Positions 2,997-14,406 of a DNA stretch of 23,439 nucleotides are shown one piece after another. How positions within the stretch are numbered: position 1 is the stretch's first letter; each line of letters begins with the position of its first letter. Both the position numbers and the translations under genes were made by a program. Origin of the DNA: a virus (taxonomy: Duplodnaviria; Heunggongvirae; Uroviricota; Caudoviricetes); the IMG/VR virus record IMGVR_UViG_3300045988_013110, positions 1 to 23,439 of that record; one strand, 5' to 3'. Below the pieces are notes generated by a model that saw only the letters and a program-made list of their open reading frames with translations, did no database searches and was not told the origin of the DNA.

Positions 2997-3914
2997 TTAC
3001 ATAGATGTTTCGTTTAATTCTTCCCGACGAACGCTGTAAACGTCGGTGGCTTTTGCCAGCAGTTCGTCATCATCTGAAAGTTTTTGTGCAATGTATTTGT
3101 AAGCCTTATCCAGTTCGGAGACAGTGCTGTAATTCATCGCTGCGCTGGTAAAGGCCATCAGCACTTCTTCTGGATCACGGCTATCCGCTTTACGCGTTTG
3201 CTCATCATGCTTTTTCACTGGTTTAGCGTTGATCAGACTGTTCATGCTGGATGCTGTGCCGTGCTTTGCCTGACTTCTTGGAGTTACGTCACGTTCAATA
3301 ATGTCAGGTGAGTCGATATATTTACCTTCCATTTCCTCAGCTGTGGCTTGTTGACCAATCTCCGGCCATGCTTTACGTAATGCCTGTGCCTCTGCGCATT
3401 TTGCCAACTGCGCATAAGGGCGCTTTTTCCACATGGCATTTGGTGCCGATGTGTCACGCCCCCCAGTTGCATAGTTCTCAATCCAGTATTCTTTGGCGCT
3501 AAACTCTACGATTTCCCCGCTTGCCATTCGCTTGCTGACGGTGTACTTACACCACTGAGGGAAGGTAACCTCCACGCCTGAAAGCGTTTGTGTTACATCT
3601 GGACCGAACTCAGGTTCATTAGCGCCTGCGTAATCGCCGGAACGGTAGGCCTGAATGCGATAAAGTCCAATGCCAGGCATGACCACGTCGCGCCATTCAT
3701 TCTTTCCACTCTTCGAGTCTTTAACACTCATTGGTACCAGGTGTACCGGCTTAAGAAGAGGATCGAGTTGACGCGCCCGGCAGTAATCGACTGCCATCAT
3801 TACCGATTCATCTTTTGCCCCAGGGTAAATACTGTTTTTCAGAGCGCTCCATGTAACTTCATCGATTCCCCGAATAGCCAACACATCATTGGTGATTGCA
3901 ATTTCGTTGCTCAT
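2997..3914 (-). CDS. RecT/Red-beta family single-strand annealing protein
   Basis: Segments HLVPMSVKDSKSGKNEW and AMWKKRPYAQLAKCAEAQALRKAWPE resemble the RecT family by recollection. ATG 3914 overlaps the exonuclease stop (ATGA). Confidence 0.8.
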   Translation of the reverse strand: MSNEIAITNDVLAIRGIDEVTWSALKNSIYPGAKDESVMMAVDYCRARQLDPLLKPVHLVPMSVKDSKSGKNEWRDVVMPGIGLYRIQAYRSGDYAGANEPEFGPDVTQTLSGVEVTFPQWCKYTVSKRMASGEIVEFSAKEYWIENYATGGRDTSAPNAMWKKRPYAQLAKCAEAQALRKAWPEIGQQATAEEMEGKYIDSPDIIERDVTPRSQAKHGTASSMNSLINAKPVKKHDEQTRKADSRDPEEVLMAFTSAAMNYSTVSELDKAYKYIAQKLSDDDELLAKATDVYSVRREELNETSM

Positions 3915-5189: not shown

Positions 5190-5279
5190 TTACCTCGGTC
5201 TGTTACCGTTGGGGTAATAATTATGCTTATTTGGTTTGGTGTCAATAGATATGAGTTAAAAAAATTACCCGTAAGGTAA
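5190..5279. promoter_or_regulatory. OL-like operator pair plus half-site upstream of the leftward operon
   Basis: Perfect TTACC-N5-GGTAA at 5203-5217 and 5265-5279 (centres 62 bp apart), plus a TTACC half-site at 5190-5194. Confidence 0.55.
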
Positions 5280-5336: not shown

Positions 5337-5921
5337 TTATTGTTTGCTTTTTTCGTTCTGGTTGATGACAAATTCAATGTAACTTTCGATCTTTGCTTTC
5401 TCGGTTTCGGGTAACAATGCGTAGCGCGAGCGATCATAGTTGATGGTCGCAGGGTCGTGCGGGTGAATCAGTAATTCATAGCCGTGACGCCCGAATGCGG
5501 ATGCAACATTCTCCAGGGTGGAAATGGAAACGCTGACCTCATTGTTTAACAGGCGACTGATTGTCACCTGGGCGACGCCGGATGCGCGGTGAAGTTTTCC
5601 CTGCGTTGAAAGGTCGCGGCTTTCGCTCATCCAGCGTTCCAGGTTGTGAGCCGCCAGCTGACCAATGTCGCTTGGGCCGACAGGCTGAAAACCTTCCTGA
5701 GAAAGCGAGCGATCGATATCAAGCCAGTTACGGGGTTTATTGGCGGCAGCTTCAATTTTTCGCGCAACCTGGTCGCCGATAACCTTCTTGCCAAGAGCCC
5801 AGCGGTTTACCAGATTTGCCTGAGTTCCAAGTTTTTCTGCCATCCGCGTCTGAACACCATTGAATTCACGGTCGATCAAGTCGTTGAGATTTTGCCTGCG
5901 GACGTCCTGGATACTTTTCAT
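5337..5921 (-). CDS. prophage repressor (CI-like) with two HTH regions and no obvious S24 peptidase domain
   Basis: Two XRE-type HTH stretches (MAEKLGTQANLVNRWALGKK and ASGVAQVTISRLLNNEVSVSISTLENVA). No GDSM-type Ser/Lys autocleavage motif seen. Divergent from a Cro-like gene with operators in between. Confidence 0.7.
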   Translation of the reverse strand: MKSIQDVRRQNLNDLIDREFNGVQTRMAEKLGTQANLVNRWALGKKVIGDQVARKIEAAANKPRNWLDIDRSLSQEGFQPVGPSDIGQLAAHNLERWMSESRDLSTQGKLHRASGVAQVTISRLLNNEVSVSISTLENVASAFGRHGYELLIHPHDPATINYDRSRYALLPETEKAKIESYIEFVINQNEKSKQ

Positions 5922-5976: not shown

Positions 5977-6039
5977 TTACCCAACAGGTAAATGCACCCC
6001 ATAGGTAACTATCCTTGATTTTTGTTACCTTATGGGTGA
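5977..6039. promoter_or_regulatory. OR-like tripartite operator region between the repressor and Cro-like gene
   Basis: TTACC-CAACA-GGTAA (5977-5991), GCACC-CCATA-GGTAA (5994-6008) and TTACC-TTATG-GGTGA (6025-6039) lie in the 154-bp divergent intergenic region. Confidence 0.6.
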
Positions 6040-6075: not shown

Positions 6076-6306
6076 ATGAGCGATAACGGACATTTCGATT
6101 TCAAAAAGCACTGGCTTGCACTTACTCCGGATGAGCGTGAAGCCTTCGCACAGGAAGCCGGAACGACGAGTCACTATATCCAGACTCACTTAACAGGTAA
6201 GCGCAAAATGCCAGGTAAGGTATTGATGAATGGGCTTTTTAAAGCCTGTAAAACAAGACAATGGCTGCGCTCAAAAGCAGAACTGGCATACTTCTTCTAC
6301 TCATGA
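6076..6306 (+). CDS. Cro-like HTH protein
   Basis: 76-aa ORF divergent from the repressor; HTH-like stretch TSHYIQTHLTGKRKMPGK; followed by a terminator. Confidence 0.55.
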   Translation: MSDNGHFDFKKHWLALTPDEREAFAQEAGTTSHYIQTHLTGKRKMPGKVLMNGLFKACKTRQWLRSKAELAYFFYS

Positions 6307-6673: not shown

Positions 6674-7507
6674 ATGAGCAGACATGCAACAGATTGGGCC
6701 TGGGAGACAGATCCAGGTAGCTCATCATTAAAGCTCATACTGCTCTCGATGGCTGACAGAGCCGATGAATATAACCTCTGCTACCCCAGCATAGAACGCC
6801 TCGTTAAAGACACTTGCCTGAATAAAAAAACCGTGCAGGCCGGGCTTATATCGCTCATGAAAATGGGGCTTATTTCAGATACCGGAGAGAGAAAGGGAGC
6901 GACAAAAAGAGTGCGGGTTTTCTCTCTTAATATAACCAAAAACGGGAACATTAAAGGCAACCTAGAAGGGTGTAATGAACCCGAAAACGGTAATGTTCCC
7001 GAAAACGGGAATATACCCAAAAACGGGATGTTGAATGATCCCAAAAACGGGATGTTGAATGATCCCAAAAACGGGATCCAGAACCAGTCATATAACCAGT
7101 CATTTAACCAAGAGAGGGAGAGCAGGACAAAAACCGGGGATTCTGTGCCTCATGACCCCGGCGCAAACAACGCCGTGATGAATAACTTTGTTCCTCCTGG
7201 TGGGCCAGGGCAATTAGGCAAATTTGTCATGCATGAACAATGGCAGCCATCAGATGACTTTCTTCGGAAAAGCTCATTGCAGGGAATCTACCTGGACAGT
7301 CTGCCAACGGCACAGGAACTTGCAGAGTTCAGAATTTACTGGATGGCTGAGGGTAAGGCATACCATCAGGCACAGTGGGAGCAGAAGCTGGCAAGGCGCA
7401 TCCAGTTCTGTAGACAGAAATCAGGTGAAGTCAGAAAGAGCCTTGACTGGCATAACACTGACTGGATAGATGAGGTGTGGGATGAAATCAACTCCAGAAC
7501 TTCTTAA
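6674..7507 (+). CDS. replication initiation protein (HTH N-terminus, DnaT-like C-terminus) with embedded iterons
   Basis: N-terminus (WAWETDPGSSSLKLILLSMADRADEYNLCYPSIERLVKDTC) resembles HTH domains of phage replication initiators; the C-terminal region looks DnaT-like. An iteron array lies inside the gene, as ori does in lambda O. Confidence 0.7.
   Translation: MSRHATDWAWETDPGSSSLKLILLSMADRADEYNLCYPSIERLVKDTCLNKKTVQAGLISLMKMGLISDTGERKGATKRVRVFSLNITKNGNIKGNLEGCNEPENGNVPENGNIPKNGMLNDPKNGMLNDPKNGIQNQSYNQSFNQERESRTKTGDSVPHDPGANNAVMNNFVPPGGPGQLGKFVMHEQWQPSDDFLRKSSLQGIYLDSLPTAQELAEFRIYWMAEGKAYHQAQWEQKLARRIQFCRQKSGEVRKSLDWHNTDWIDEVWDEINSRTS
6935..7104. repeat. iteron array, candidate origin of replication
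   Basis: Six copies of core CC(C/A)(G/A)AAAACGG(G/T) starting near 6936, 6980, 6998, 7016, 7040 and 7064 (spacing 18, 18, 24, 24 bp), then AACCAGTCAT twice (7082-7103). Confidence 0.6.
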
Positions 7508-8264: not shown

Positions 8265-8301
8265 TACCAGCGCGATAGCGCATTTTTTTACGTCTTGATA
8301 A

Positions 8302-8378
8302 TTACCTGTTGGGTAATAAAATATTCTAAAATCTATTGATTTCGTGTCTTATGTGGTTTTTAATTACCTCAGAGGTAA
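8302..8378. promoter_or_regulatory. operator pair upstream of the middle-gene operon
   Basis: Perfect TTACC-N5-GGTAA at 8302-8316 and 8364-8378, centres 62 bp apart. The proximal site overlaps the Shine-Dalgarno (AGAGG) of the gene starting at 8382. Confidence 0.5.
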
Positions 8379-9955: not shown

Positions 9956-10185
9956 TTGAGGGTATTAGCAATAAATCGTTGAACACAGCATGTGTCGACG
10001 GTGGGTTGTTGTACAAAGTGACGTTTACGCAAATCGACAACGAAGATAACGCATTCACTGTGATTTACACGTCGCCAGCGATGGCGCAGAAGTGGGTGGA
10101 TCTGCACAGGCTATGTGGTTTTCGTGTTGAGTGGGGGTGTTATGAGATGCGATGCAGATGGCATCATCGGGGGGATGAAAAATGA
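9952..10185 (+). CDS. hypothetical protein
   Basis: 77-aa ORF, start overlapping the upstream gene. Confidence 0.4.
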   Translation: MIEGISNKSLNTACVDGGLLYKVTFTQIDNEDNAFTVIYTSPAMAQKWVDLHRLCGFRVEWGCYEMRCRWHHRGDEK

Positions 10186-10559
10186 GCACTACGCTTGAGC
10201 AATGGCTGGAACAGCAGCACGGCAAAATTGATGTTGATTGCGGCTGTGTGAGCACTGAAACGCTTATGCACTGGATGCGTGTGGCGTATGAGGCTGGCAA
10301 CTCTCCGGTAACTCCGGAGAGTTGGATAAGCTGTAGTGAACGAATGCCAGAAATGGGAGAGCGACAATGCTATGTGTTAGCTGCTGACTTTAAAAACAAC
10401 TACCCACCAAGCATCCCCAACACTCAGGTCGGCGTATATGGCGACTGGTTTAATGATGGCAAGCCCACTTGGGATGACGGTGGTGGCGAAGACCTGTATC
10501 TCAAGGAGGTAACCCACTGGATGCCGCTGCCAGAACCGCCGGAGCAGGATGGTGAATGA
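10182..10559 (+). CDS. DUF551-like phage protein
   Basis: C-terminal THWMPLPEPP resembles the DUF551 family signature. Confidence 0.55.
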   Translation: MSTTLEQWLEQQHGKIDVDCGCVSTETLMHWMRVAYEAGNSPVTPESWISCSERMPEMGERQCYVLAADFKNNYPPSIPNTQVGVYGDWFNDGKPTWDDGGGEDLYLKEVTHWMPLPEPPEQDGE

Positions 10560-10645
10560 TGCCGCCAGTTAAAGTTGTGATTATCACTTTGGTGATGATA
10601 GTGATTGCGAGAATCATGTCTGGTGAAGTTTGGTGGATATGGTAA
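10556..10645 (+). CDS. candidate hydrophobic micropeptide (29 aa)
   Basis: ATG overlaps the upstream stop (ATGA); GGA-rich Shine-Dalgarno. Product MMPPVKVVIITLVMIVIARIMSGEVWWIW looks like a single transmembrane helix. Below the ORF-track cutoff. Confidence 0.25.
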   Translation: MMPPVKVVIITLVMIVIARIMSGEVWWIW

Positions 10646-10983
10646 TGGCTAAGGCAGCAGCAGAGCGCAAAGCCGCTCAGAGAGCCAGACAAGCTGCATC
10701 TGGTGTGCGTAAGCTGGAGATTGTGCTTGATGCTCAGGAAATTGAAATGCTGGAGCGTAACTGTGCCACACGTCGCCCCGGGCGTGCGCCTTACGAATTT
10801 GGTGAGTATATAGCGTTACTGATCCGCCAGGATGATGCGCGCGTGCACGGGCGTATAAAATCGATCAGCAGAAAACGTTGCGGTAAGTGCGGCGAGAGAG
10901 TTCCTGTGAATTCATGCCCGTGTAATGGTGACTCGCAATGCTGGGTGACTAAAGGCTGGCATGAAACGAAATTAATATTGTGA
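10630..10983 (+). CDS. hypothetical protein with C-terminal Cys cluster
   Basis: C-terminus RCGKCGERVPVNSCPCNGDSQC; last gene before the terminator that precedes the packaging operon. The start could instead be ATG 10645. Confidence 0.45.
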   Translation: MVDMVMAKAAAERKAAQRARQAASGVRKLEIVLDAQEIEMLERNCATRRPGRAPYEFGEYIALLIRQDDARVHGRIKSISRKRCGKCGERVPVNSCPCNGDSQCWVTKGWHETKLIL

Positions 10984-11032
10984 CATGTCACGAGTGGGTT
11001 ATGCATGATGAATTTGATGGGTTTTGAATACT

Positions 11033-11058
11033 GCCGCCAACTATGGCGGCTTTATTTT
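11033..11058 (+). terminator. rho-independent terminator upstream of the terminase genes
   Basis: Stem GCCGCC / GGCGGC with loop AACTAT, followed by TTTATTTT. Confidence 0.65.
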
Positions 11059-11066
11059 GCATGGTA

Positions 11067-11102
11067 CTATTACCACAACGGTAACTATTACCACGGTGGT
11101 TA
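11067..11102. promoter_or_regulatory. operator-like sites and direct repeat at the packaging-operon entry
   Basis: Perfect TTACC-ACAAC-GGTAA (11070-11084) and imperfect TTACC-ACGGT-GGTTA (11088-11102), within a 10-bp direct repeat CTATTACCAC (11067-11076 and 11085-11094), immediately before the TerS start codon. Confidence 0.45.
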
Positions 11103-11701
11103 TGATGCCTGCTGAACCTAAAACCTATAAACGCAAATCAACGCAATTTAAGCCACTAACAGCAATGCAGGAGGCTTATTGCCAGTCATACATCAAAACG
11201 CCTGAAAACCAGACTCAGGCTGCGATTAATGCAGGATTCTCCCCAAATACAGCGGCAGTTAAAGCCAGTGTCATGATGCGCGATGAACGCATTCAGAAAC
11301 GGATTGCCGAGTTGATGGAGGAGCGCAACAAACGAATGCGCGTCAGTGCTGATTACGTTCTCATGCGCCTGGTGGAGATCGACCAGATGGACGTGATTGA
11401 CATTCTCAACGACGATATGAGCATCAAGCCGGTCTCGGAATGGCCTAAGGTCTGGCGGCAGTACCTGACAGGTTTCGAACTGGCCGACATGTTCGAAGGC
11501 CGTGGAGACGAGAAAGAGCTGGTTGGCATCCTCAAAAAAATTAAATGGCCTGACAAGGTGAAGAACCTCGAACTGATTGGTAAGCACGTCGACGTCAACG
11601 CATTCAAAGAACGCCTGGATGTTAATGTGAATGTGACAATTGCTGATCGCATAGCGGCAGCCAGGAAGAGACTGAAAGAACGTCAGGATGGCAATCAGTG
11701 A
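11102..11701 (+). CDS. terminase small subunit
   Basis: Start set at ATG 11102 because the track start at 11024 is a TTG lying upstream of the terminator. HTH-like segment LTAMQEAYCQSYIKTPENQTQAAINAGFSPNTAAVKAS is typical of small terminase subunits. Confidence 0.8.
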   Translation: MMPAEPKTYKRKSTQFKPLTAMQEAYCQSYIKTPENQTQAAINAGFSPNTAAVKASVMMRDERIQKRIAELMEERNKRMRVSADYVLMRLVEIDQMDVIDILNDDMSIKPVSEWPKVWRQYLTGFELADMFEGRGDEKELVGILKKIKWPDKVKNLELIGKHVDVNAFKERLDVNVNVTIADRIAAARKRLKERQDGNQ

Positions 11702-13173
11702 CAGATACAGCGTTATCTCCTGAAGAGCAGTTAATCGAGGATATTGCAGGGTTCACTCACGATCCGCTTGGCTATGCCCTCTATGCGTTCCCATGGGGGG
11801 AAGAGGGGACTGAACTGGCACATGCCACCGGCCCACGTCAGTGGCAGGCTGATGCGTTCCGAGAGATACGTGATCACCTGCAGAATCCAGAGACGCGATA
11901 TCAGCCGCTTATGCTGGCACGTGCTTCTGGTCACGGTATTGGTAAATCCGCATTCATCTCAATGCTGATCAACTGGGGCATGTCCACTTGCGAGGATTGT
12001 AAGGTCGTGGTGACCGCCAACACCGACAACCAGCTACGAACGAAGACCTGGCCGGAAATTATCAAGTGGTCAAACCTTGCTATCACGAAAGACTGGTTTA
12101 CCTGTACCGCTACCGCGATGTACAGCAATGACCCTGGGCACGACAAGCGGTGGCGAGCTGACGCAATCCCCTGGTCTGAGCACAACACTGAGGCATTCGC
12201 CGGACTACACAACGAGCGTAAACGCATCATTGTGGTATTTGATGAAGCGTCGAACATTGCGGATCTGGTGTGGGAAGTTGCCGAGGGTGCGCTAACGGAC
12301 GAAGACACTGAGATTATCTGGGTGGCTTTCGGAAACCCTACACGTAACACCGGGCGTTTCCGTGAATGTTTCCGCAAATACAAACACCGCTGGAAAACTG
12401 CGCAGATTGACAGCAGGACGGTGGAAGGCACCAACAAACAGCAGTTGCAGAAATGGGTTGATGACTACGGGGAAGATAGCGACTTCGTTAAAATCCGTGT
12501 GCGTGGCATATTCCCTGATGCATCTGAATTGCAGTTTATCCCTACCGGTCTTACTGACGAGGCAATGAAACGGGTGGTAACCGCTGCGCAGGTTGCACAT
12601 GCTCCGGTGATAATCGGTGTTGACCCGGCATATTCAGGCGTTGATGACGCGGTGATATACCTGCGGCAGGGGCTACACAGTAAGGTGCTGTGGACTGGCA
12701 ACAAGACTACCGACGATCTGATTATGGCGAAGCGTATCGCTGACTTTGAAGACCAGTATCAGGCTGACGCGGTGTTCATCGACTTCGGTTACGGAACCGG
12801 TTTGAAGTCAATCGGTGACGGCTGGGGTCGTACATGGCAACTTGTTCCGTTCGGTGGCGCGTCTACTGACCCGCAGATGCTCAACAAGCGTGGGGAGATG
12901 TTCAACTCATGCAAGACATGGCTGAGGCTGGGCGGCATGCTGGATGACCAGGAAACAGCGGACGACCTGTCGGCGGCAGAGTACAAAGTTCGAGTGGACG
13001 GTAAAATCGTTATCGAACCGAAGGAAGATATCAAGGAGCGGCTTGGGCGTTCGCCGGGTAAAGGCGATGCGCTACTGCTGACGTTTGCTTTCCCGGTCTC
13101 GAAACGCATAAATATACCAGGACAGCAAAGCCAGCAGGGAAGGGCCATTACAGATTACGATCCCTATGCTTAA
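11698..13173 (+). CDS. terminase large subunit
   Basis: 491 aa; Walker A-like GHGIGKS; GTG start overlapping the TerS stop (GTGA). Confidence 0.9.
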   Translation: MTDTALSPEEQLIEDIAGFTHDPLGYALYAFPWGEEGTELAHATGPRQWQADAFREIRDHLQNPETRYQPLMLARASGHGIGKSAFISMLINWGMSTCEDCKVVVTANTDNQLRTKTWPEIIKWSNLAITKDWFTCTATAMYSNDPGHDKRWRADAIPWSEHNTEAFAGLHNERKRIIVVFDEASNIADLVWEVAEGALTDEDTEIIWVAFGNPTRNTGRFRECFRKYKHRWKTAQIDSRTVEGTNKQQLQKWVDDYGEDSDFVKIRVRGIFPDASELQFIPTGLTDEAMKRVVTAAQVAHAPVIIGVDPAYSGVDDAVIYLRQGLHSKVLWTGNKTTDDLIMAKRIADFEDQYQADAVFIDFGYGTGLKSIGDGWGRTWQLVPFGGASTDPQMLNKRGEMFNSCKTWLRLGGMLDDQETADDLSAAEYKVRVDGKIVIEPKEDIKERLGRSPGKGDALLLTFAFPVSKRINIPGQQSQQGRAITDYDPYA

Positions 13174-13258: not shown

Positions 13259-13606
13259 TTATTTCTTGATAATATTTCCAGACATTGTGCTGGCGTTTCC
13301 ACCAACAGTTTCGCAGATTACATCTCCAGACATGGTGTTTACATTTCCCAATACATTGGAACAATGGACATCACCAGACATAGTTTTCACATAATGTGCA
13401 TCACCGCTTACAGTCACTGATCCATTTTCAATCTCAACACCTTCCACGCTTCCATTAATTGTTACGTTAATCTGTCCGTCAAGATTGCTATTTTTTTCGA
13501 CACCATCAACGATCACTTTTCCATTGTTAATCGTAATATGATGACCAGTGAAGTCTTCTCCGTTGACGCTAACGCTAGCACCACGTACGTTATTGATTTT
13601 AATCAT
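13259..13606 (-). CDS. reverse-strand accessory gene: Gly/Val/Asn-rich beta-helix repeat protein (bactofilin-like)
   Basis: 115 aa; repeated G-x-V/I pattern (ITINNGKVIVDGV..INVTINGSVEGVEIENGSVTVSGD..MSGDVHCSNVLGNVNTMSGDVICETVGGNASTMSGN). Only clear opposite-strand gene in the late region, bracketed by its own terminators. Confidence 0.6.
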   Translation of the reverse strand: MIKINNVRGASVSVNGEDFTGHHITINNGKVIVDGVEKNSNLDGQINVTINGSVEGVEIENGSVTVSGDAHYVKTMSGDVHCSNVLGNVNTMSGDVICETVGGNASTMSGNIIKK

Positions 13607-13714: not shown

Positions 13715-13739
13715 AAAAAAAATGCCCGGCGAACCGGGC
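13715..13739 (-). terminator. rho-independent terminator (minus strand)
   Basis: Stem GCCCGG / CCGGGC with loop CGAA; minus-strand T8 run follows. Confidence 0.6.
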
Positions 13740-13816
13740 GAACTGGAAGCAATGAGTTATGCCTTCCGTGGCTGTACTGGTTTACAGCATGAAGCCATCG
13801 CAATGGCGTCCTGCTG

Positions 13817-13859
13817 TAAAAAGGGCGGTGATAGTCCTTCAAGGGAAACCATCACCGCC
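13817..13859 (-). terminator. candidate terminator downstream of the tRNA
   Basis: 9-bp stem GGCGGTGAT / ATCACCGCC with an 18-nt loop, followed on the minus strand by CTTTTTA. The long loop lowers confidence. Confidence 0.4.
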
Positions 13860-13902
13860 AAGCCCCTGGAACTTCTGGCATCACGGTCCTTAGGCGTGAT
13901 TC

Positions 13903-13979
13903 TGGCGTGGCATGCAGGATTCGAACCTGCGACCAACCGCTTAGAAGGCGGTTGCTCTGTCCAACTGAGCTAATGCCAC
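13903..13979 (-). tRNA. tRNA-Arg (anticodon UCU)
   Basis: Hand-folded 77-nt cloverleaf with CCA: acceptor GTGGCAT/ATGCCAC, D-arm GCTC-AGTTGGACA-GAGC, anticodon stem ACCGC/GCGGT with loop CTTCTAA (anticodon TCT), T-arm GCAGG-TTCGAAT-CCTGC, discriminator G. Confidence 0.85.
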
Positions 13980-14301: not shown

Positions 14302-14316
14302 TTACCTGAAAGGTAA
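14302..14316. promoter_or_regulatory. operator-like site upstream of the virion operon
   Basis: Perfect TTACC-TGAAA-GGTAA; a GGTAA half-site at 14374-14378 sits at the same 62-bp centre offset. Confidence 0.45.
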
Positions 14317-14406
14317 TAATTCGCGCGTTAAATGTCAACTGTCTACGATAAATAAATCATATGTGGTTAAATTGGTAATAATTTAATTGCGTACGGAGTC
14401 ATTGAT

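Follow-up and report, generated by a model that had tools for sequence, protein, structure and literature searches.

The stretch of DNA analysed here, 23,439 nucleotides long and referred to below as the window, is a prophage of the epsilon15/phiV10/SPC32H type (genus Uetakevirus), a common prophage of Escherichia coli. Megablast comparison of positions 10000–12500 gave ~95% identity to phiV10, TL-2011b and ZX5 and ~80–83% identity to epsilon15, Tyrion and SPN1S. The 401 bp around the terS-proximal site examined below were present in 503 of 5426 complete E. coli genomes (~9%). The attP core reported for ZX5 was absent from the window. The genes are arranged as follows:

202–1452, integrase gene, the first gene in the order
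leftward early operon, with MT-A70 methylase, PerC-like, AlpA-like, RecT and exonuclease genes
2290–2589, PerC-like ORF within this early-left operon
5337–5921, minus strand, rep, encoding the prophage repressor, a full-length homologue of SPC32H Rep
6076–6306, cro-like gene
between the cro-like gene and the phrog_536 gene, replication genes (DnaT/O-like and P-like), then several small ORFs
10645–10983, plus strand, phrog_536 regulator gene (112 aa), last gene of the early-right operon
11105–11701, plus strand, terS (198 aa; Pfam Terminase_2, E = 2.2e-29)
11698–13173, terL, directly after terS, with the portal and head/tail genes next

In the intergenic stretch before terS, the early-right operon would give way to the packaging operon. 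This stretch carries the following elements:

10980–10991, perfect 12-bp palindrome GTGACATGTCAC, overlapping the TGA stop of the phrog_536 gene
11001–11027, plus strand, 8-codon ORF remnant (MHDEFDGF and stop), recognised by comparison with positions 6712–6923 of a relative, L005
11033–11058, plus strand, intrinsic terminator, the putative end of the early-right operon
11062–11070, plus strand, predicted extended −10 promoter P_terS, TGgTACTAT, with a predicted start at ~11076–11078
11070–11084, predicted operator O1, TTACCACAACGGTAA, a perfect TTACC-N5-GGTAA
11088–11102, predicted operator O2, TTACCACGGTGGTTA, a 9/10 match with one mismatch in the right half

The terminator consists of a 7-bp stem with six GC pairs (GCCGCCA, 11033–11039, and TGGCGGC, 11044–11050), a four-base loop (ACTA) and a U-run, TTTATTTT, directly after it (11051–11058). 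O1 starts 12 bp after the T-run, in agreement with the original prediction of a terminator followed within 45 bp by a perfect operator copy. Three upstream architectures were seen among the relatives. In type A, to which the window and epsilon15 belong, the regulator stop is followed by the terminator; in type B an extra small ORF lies between the two; and in type C (L075, L076, L079 and L083) a different ORF is present and the terminator is absent. Across type A and type B loci, the terminator is nearly unchanged in sequence and shows no compensatory changes. The layout can do without the terminator, to judge from the four relatives that have the promoter and O1 but no terminator. Type B relatives such as L005 have an intact ORF of ~70 aa, of which the 8-codon ORF represents the start codon and the final seven codons. 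By this comparison, 11001–11027 is the scar of a deletion, and the interval from the regulator gene to the terminator is a variable slot.

The palindrome to which O1 belongs is strongly overrepresented. We counted seven perfect copies of TTACC-N5-GGTAA in the 23.4-kb window against 0.01 expected (5203, 5265, 5977, 8302, 8364, 11070 and 14302), one-mismatch copies at 145, 6025 and 11088, and a total of 28 copies with ≤2 mismatches against 6.1 expected. The perfect and one-mismatch copies are confined to intergenic control regions, namely the leftward early promoter, the rep/cro interval, the internal rightward promoter, the terS leader, the terL/portal interval and the region upstream of int. 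Besides those in the terS leader, the main groups are:

5203–5217 and 5265–5279, operator pair 62 bp apart, around the leftward early promoter
5977, 5994 and 6025 (span 5977–6039), three operators between rep and the cro-like gene
8302–8316 and 8364–8378, operator pair 62 bp apart, at the internal rightward promoter TTGATA-16-TAAAAT
14302–14316, operator in the terL/portal interval, directly next to a leftward −10, AATTAT

The spacing of neighbouring operators is 17–18 bp at terS as well as in the rep/cro interval, and is exactly 62 bp for 5203/5265 and 8302/8364. The 62-bp centre-to-centre spacing of the two pairs recurs in nearly all relatives and suggests looping by one Rep tetramer around the promoter. 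The integrase start is preceded, at a distance of ~45 bp, by the one-mismatch operator TTACCTTAAAGGTAT (145–159), and int may be under Rep control as well, because this integrase-proximal operator is kept with the identical mismatch in epsilon15 (26882) and SPC32H (26960). Operators also repeatedly overlap the Shine-Dalgarno sequence of the next gene, as at 8364–8378 and 11088–11102 in the window and at ~1886–1900 in the distant locus L105 (TTACCTCAGAGGTAAatcATG; TTACCACGGTGGTTAtgATG; TTACCAAGGAGGTAAttattATG); in such operators, the ribosome-binding site includes the GG of the right half-site.

Several lines of evidence connect these palindromes to the prophage repressor. The rep gene lies in the same element, with copies of the motif at the rep/cro positions 5977, 5994 and 6025, and its product matched PDB chain 5d50_A over residues 1–190 (phmmer, E = 3.5e-42) as well as Pfam HTH_3 and phrog_8. 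The inverted repeat (A)TTACC-N5-GGTAA(T), perfect in O1 and 9/10 in O2, is the same motif as the sites annotated in epsilon15. Because the motif recurs at rep/cro and coincides with the repressor-site annotation of epsilon15, we read the palindromes, on sequence comparison, as the operators of the prophage repressor. Rep relatives of 42–100% identity, from E. coli, Salmonella, Klebsiella, Enterobacter, Citrobacter and other hosts, are accompanied by identical operator half-sites, leaving no variation for covariation. According to a secondary description of the SPC32H switch (bioRxiv 10.1101/2021.09.07.459249), Rep is a tetramer on palindromic sites that is dismantled by a tetrameric antirepressor; the paired operators would fit a tetramer with two DNA-binding pairs. 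In ZX5 (~95% identical), overexpression of Rep lowered holin and endolysin transcripts by >99.9%, an experiment that does not separate direct from indirect repression (PMC9782041). Neither the ORF at 13259–13606 (minus strand) nor that at 13722–13973 (plus strand) matched the 5D50 chains, and both were rejected as candidates for an antirepressor; in SPC32H, ant adjoins the tailspike gene, a location outside this window.

The terL/portal interval has further features of its own. The leftward promoter-like site at 14316–14345 (minus strand), whose −10 abuts the operator at 14302, lies upstream of a tRNA-Arg(TCT) gene (13903–13979, minus strand). Between this tRNA and the minus-strand gene at 13259–13606 is a perfect LexA-box-like palindrome, CTGTACTGGTTTACAG (13772–13787). 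The plus-strand ORF at 13722–13973 (83 aa; phrog_4647), annotated in TL-2011b and phiV10, overlaps the tRNA and two terminator-like hairpins and may be spurious. A 40-nt block, TAAATAAATCATATGTGGTTAAATTGGTAATAATTTAATT (14349–14388), precedes the small gene that lies before portal; epsilon15 has exactly this sequence, in surroundings that are ~83% identical. The block holds a GGTAA half-site 61 bp from the 14302 operator.

Within the terS leader, the original prediction had also listed a 10-bp direct repeat. The repeat, CTATTACCAC, does occur twice (11067–11076 and 11085–11094). It is, however, simply the left half-sites of O1 and O2 with 4–5 flanking bases and not an independent element: taken by itself the pair of 10-mers is not significant, with 20 of 100 shuffles giving at least two matches with ≤1 mismatch, and epsilon15 does not keep it (ACTATTACCAA vs ATTATTACTTC).

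The predicted promoter P_terS begins four bases past the terminator T-run, and the last T of its −10 is the first T of O1. The nine bases at 11062–11070 comprise TGn followed by a hexamer with T at −12, A at −11 and T at −7, as in extended −10 promoters. There is no −35 element, the −10 matches the consensus at 4/6 positions, and the promoter was not called by a consensus promoter scan. Counted from the first base of O1, T-8, G-7, T-5, A-4, A-1 and T0 were invariant in 26 distinct upstream sequences, with variation at −6 and −3; the variants found against O1 were TGgTACTAT, TGtTACTAT, TGgTATTAT, TGaTACTAT, TGtTACAAT, TGtTAGTAT and TGaTAGTAT. The positions that vary are exactly those that are degenerate in an extended −10 promoter. 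Moreover, TG-n-TA-nn-AT abuts O1 in all three upstream architectures, including type C, with its unrelated upstream DNA and no terminator. The combined promoter-operator motif is unique in the window, and a like geometry, with a −10 that ends on the first base of an operator, occurs at the leftward early promoter (TTGACA-17-AATTAT, 5245–5217) and at 14321–14316. In the more distant loci L105 and L113, too, a −10-like hexamer adjoins a TTACC half-site, and the terS ribosome-binding site is covered by an operator. The extended −10 abutting O1 was unannotated in every record examined.

We then asked what the site is linked to. In an IMG/VR set of 80 loci encoding TerS relatives 76–100% identical to that of the window, a perfect O1 motif lay 35–38 bp before the terS match in all 80, whether the accompanying Rep was 99% or ~41% identical and whatever DNA lay upstream. 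The half-sites of O1 are invariant and its 5-bp spacer varies. Among GTDB species-representative genomes, 11 loci lay in a Rep or phrog_536 context; 10 of these had the site and the remaining one (Ca. Erwinia dacicola) had it with one mismatch. The site was found at none of 69 TerS relatives (49–63% identical) in other, Rep-less phage types. Two lambdoid phages with a Q gene, a lysis cassette and a 56%-identical TerS had no such site anywhere. Since all 80 loci and 10 of the 11 Rep-context loci have the site against 0 of 69 Rep-less ones, the distribution indicates that it travels with the Rep system and not with TerS.

The position of O2 depends on where terS starts. The original prediction placed an imperfect operator copy over the TerS start codon, and a 9/10 copy is indeed present and touches the ATG at 11102 by one base; the start conserved among relatives, however, is the ATG at 11105, and that at 11102 is not conserved. 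O2 ends 2 bp before ATG 11105 and covers the Shine-Dalgarno sequence GGTGG (11095–11099), so that, with the start at 11105, it overlies the ribosome-binding site and not the start codon. TTG 11024 is the terS start in RefSeq/PGAP (WP_001090122.1, 225 aa) and in the phiV10 record; because this TTG is taken as the start, the terminator, the promoter and both operators are annotated as coding sequence. In epsilon15, an in-frame TAA stop lies within the terS extension. The annotation of terS is thus corrected from TTG 11024 to ATG 11105. Neither the over-extended terS start of the E. coli lineage nor the dispensability of the terminator was noted in any record examined.

No Q, N or other antiterminator family matched any of the ORFs between 6076 and 10983 in Pfam, PHROGs or NCBIfam. 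The original prediction of no Q-like antiterminator or lysis cassette between the replication and packaging genes was borne out by these searches. In the relatives, the lysis genes follow the tailspike gene, far downstream.

The last gene before this boundary, at 10645–10983, was assigned to phrog_536 (E = 3e-54), a family labelled 'transcriptional regulator'. Its product gave no Pfam, NCBIfam or PDB sequence match, and its low-confidence AF2 model (pLDDT 64) had no Foldseek match in the PDB (E > 5). Residues C79, C82, C91 and C93, a C-terminal Cys4, are invariant (alignment A1), and from the sequence pattern and predicted helices we call the protein RHH-like. The gene is paired with the palindrome at its stop codon in 93–95 of 100 loci, with invariant arms GTGAC/GTCAC and a variable central 2 bp, and the regulator itself probably binds at GTGACATGTCAC. 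The palindrome lies anywhere between 107 and 470 bp from terS, and was therefore rejected as an activator site that serves the terS promoter from a fixed distance. Gene and palindrome are also found together in unrelated phages, namely Pectobacterium myovirus ZF40, Pantoea AH07, a P2-like Yersinia phage and an N15-like Klebsiella phage, and the pair is common to podovirus, myovirus and siphovirus backgrounds. In a Vibrio phage, two palindrome copies lie elsewhere, one of them 30 bp before its terS. Copies lie at 2142, 19517 and 39612 in epsilon15 and at 2145, 19634 and 38629 in SPC32H, and further ones at 7288 (L086), 7276 (L087), 3298–3313 (L090), 3269–3282 (L091) and 3511 and 6226 (L092). 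The extra copies in epsilon15 and SPC32H mark the junction of terL with a minus-strand gene and that of the tail operon with ant, both 3′ ends of units pointing into late operons. We found no mention of GTGAC-NN-GTCAC in a literature text search and no annotation of it.

Taken together, these observations point to a simple scheme for the packaging operon. Early-right transcripts would arise from the cro-side promoter and from the internal promoter at 8295–8322 and would stop at the terminator at 11033–11058. Transcription of terS-terL would begin at ~11077 from the sigma-70 extended −10, as the conservation of that element implies, giving a ~28-nt leader with the Shine-Dalgarno sequence GGTGG before ATG 11105. 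Rep, a member of the SPC32H tetrameric family that would be released by an antirepressor and not cleaved, is predicted to bind O1, which covers the last −10 base and the predicted transcription start, and O2, 18 bp downstream over the ribosome-binding site. Bound there, it would occlude RNA polymerase and keep terS-terL silent in the lysogen; upon removal of Rep, P_terS would fire like the other Rep-controlled promoters, without antitermination of the Q or N type. We consider it probable, at roughly 60%, that the early operon ends at the terminator and that terS-terL is transcribed from its own Rep-occluded promoter, opened by the antirepressor. We favour direct repression of a dedicated terS promoter over the other readings because the operators are those of Rep, no Q or N gene was found and a conserved extended −10 abuts O1. 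The original suggestion that entry into late expression is governed by direct repression is, on comparative sequence evidence, largely supported to that extent. Points against this reading are the 4/6 match of the −10 and its missing −35, the degeneracy of O2 in L075, L076 and SPC32H, and the fact that a repressor-only model provides no obvious delay between early and late expression. The PerC-like protein (2290–2589) and the conserved phrog_536 regulator could add positive control.

In one rival scheme, the late promoter depends on an activator, so that the Rep-covered extended −10 also needs a phage-encoded positive factor and repression acts as a safety lock and not as a timer. We regard this as unlikely. 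The candidate factors are the RHH-like phrog_536 regulator just upstream and the PerC-like protein of the early-left operon; the PerC-like ORF is present, and the phrog_536 gene is the last or next-to-last before terS in almost all relatives, the usual place of a late regulator. The promoter also has no −35, although extended −10 promoters can work without one. Against this scheme, the promoter region from −12 to −60 is unrelated between types A/B and type C, which leaves no conserved upstream activator site, and the phrog_536-linked palindrome sits at variable distances from terS (−107, −125, −311, −414 and −470).

It seems less plausible still that there is no functional promoter and that terS is reached by read-through of a leaky terminator, Rep on O1 and O2 serving to block stray elongating polymerase in the lysogen. 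The operators do lie immediately downstream of the terminator, and in the type C relatives, which lack it, read-through is possible; the terminator hairpin of the window, however, is GC-rich with a good U-run. Such a roadblock would be redundant, since the upstream promoters all carry operators, and the invariant TG-n-TA-nn-AT with its promoter-like degenerate positions would be left unexplained.

An arrangement resembling that of lambda is very improbable. Here a promoter, GTGACA-18-CATGAT (10980–11009), would yield a short RNA ending at the terminator, and the regulator, acting on GTGACATGTCAC, would be a Q-like antiterminator. A 9/12 match in the promoter scan does overlap the palindrome, which is itself conserved and tied to the regulator gene. 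Yet the regulator has no similarity to Q families, the palindrome of type B loci is followed directly by an ORF with no −10, type C loci have no terminator, and the gene-palindrome pair also occurs in N15-like and P2-like phages with Q or Ogr systems of their own. The absence of any Q-family protein, the lack of conservation of the 9/12 site in types B and C, and the distance of the lysis cassette all differ from a Q module of the lambda type; the promoter, short RNA and terminator module was rejected, the 9/12 match not being conserved. Finally, the idea that the repeats are a pac site recognised by TerS has next to no credibility, even though they adjoin terS and several genome records open at this point: identical palindromes lie at rep/cro and five other control regions, TerS relatives in Rep-less phages do without them, and a packaging signal is excluded because the presence of the site follows the Rep system and not TerS.

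On the preferred reading of a dedicated, Rep-occluded terS promoter, the lysogeny repressor, and not a lambda-style antiterminator, most likely controls the packaging genes directly in a prophage of ~9% of complete E. coli genomes. This is relevant to inducing, engineering or modelling such prophages and phiV10-based reporter phages. A broader proposal, which we put forward only tentatively, is that the lytic programme of Uetakevirus-type phages runs without a dedicated late activator or antiterminator and that, in addition, phrog_536 and its palindrome constitute an undescribed regulatory module at operon ends. Under this proposal, each transcription unit, the packaging operon included, may have its own sigma-70 promoter, with one tetrameric Rep holding all of them shut; the operators differ in strength and geometry, and the gradual departure of Rep from them would set the timing. 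The phrog_536-palindrome module may be common to Uetakevirus, ZF40, AH07, P2-like and N15-like phages.

The layout as such is already known and is ordinary for this phage group, in that a terminator and a repressor site before terS are annotated in epsilon15 (AY150271.2). Its rho-independent terminator is annotated at 39646–39672, the end of the record and directly upstream in the circular map, and 'protein_bind, repressor, lysogeny' is annotated at seven palindromes, including 12–27 before terS (47–643), 2931–2947, the counterpart of the 14302 operator of the window, and others at the starts of further units. The order of elements is the same, with the regulator stop and GTGACATGTCAC, the terminator, TGtTACTAT, a perfect TTACC-N5-GGTAA, a 9/10 copy and terS. 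The two differ in overall sequence (~83% DNA identity, Rep ~42% identical) and in the 8-codon ORF remnant that the window has between palindrome and terminator. O2 is again a 9/10 copy in the epsilon15 lineage, but with the mismatch in the opposite half-site (left in epsilon15, right in the window). Unlike epsilon15, the E. coli-lineage records (phiV10, PGAP) leave the sites unannotated and extend terS over them. SPC32H, source of the Rep-Ant switch (PDB 5D50/5D4Z), shares a homologous Rep and the same terminator, promoter and O1 layout before terS, and differs in having two mismatches in O2. With the Rep family already structurally characterised, the conceptual gain is small.

Further afield, three systems invite comparison. 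Phage P1 has a C1 repressor with many dispersed operators, which are asymmetric 17-mers, and its late genes need the activator Lpa. The likeness lies in a single repressor with operators spread across the genome, by which it acts on numerous separate transcription units; the sites of the window, however, are palindromes, one of them directly on the promoter of the packaging operon. The stoperators bound by gp71 of mycobacteriophage L5 are asymmetric and orientation-dependent and block elongation inside operons. There, too, many repressor sites outside the immunity region, including late regions, keep the prophage silent, but those of the window are symmetric and at promoters, being perfect palindromes in intergenic promoter regions and not orientation-biased sites in transcribed ones. 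Late control in lambda runs through PR'-qut-tR'-Q, and the two share a terminator between early-right and late genes. In lambda the promoter precedes that terminator, whereas the window has no Q gene, lysis cassette or conserved promoter upstream of it, and its conserved promoter lies downstream.
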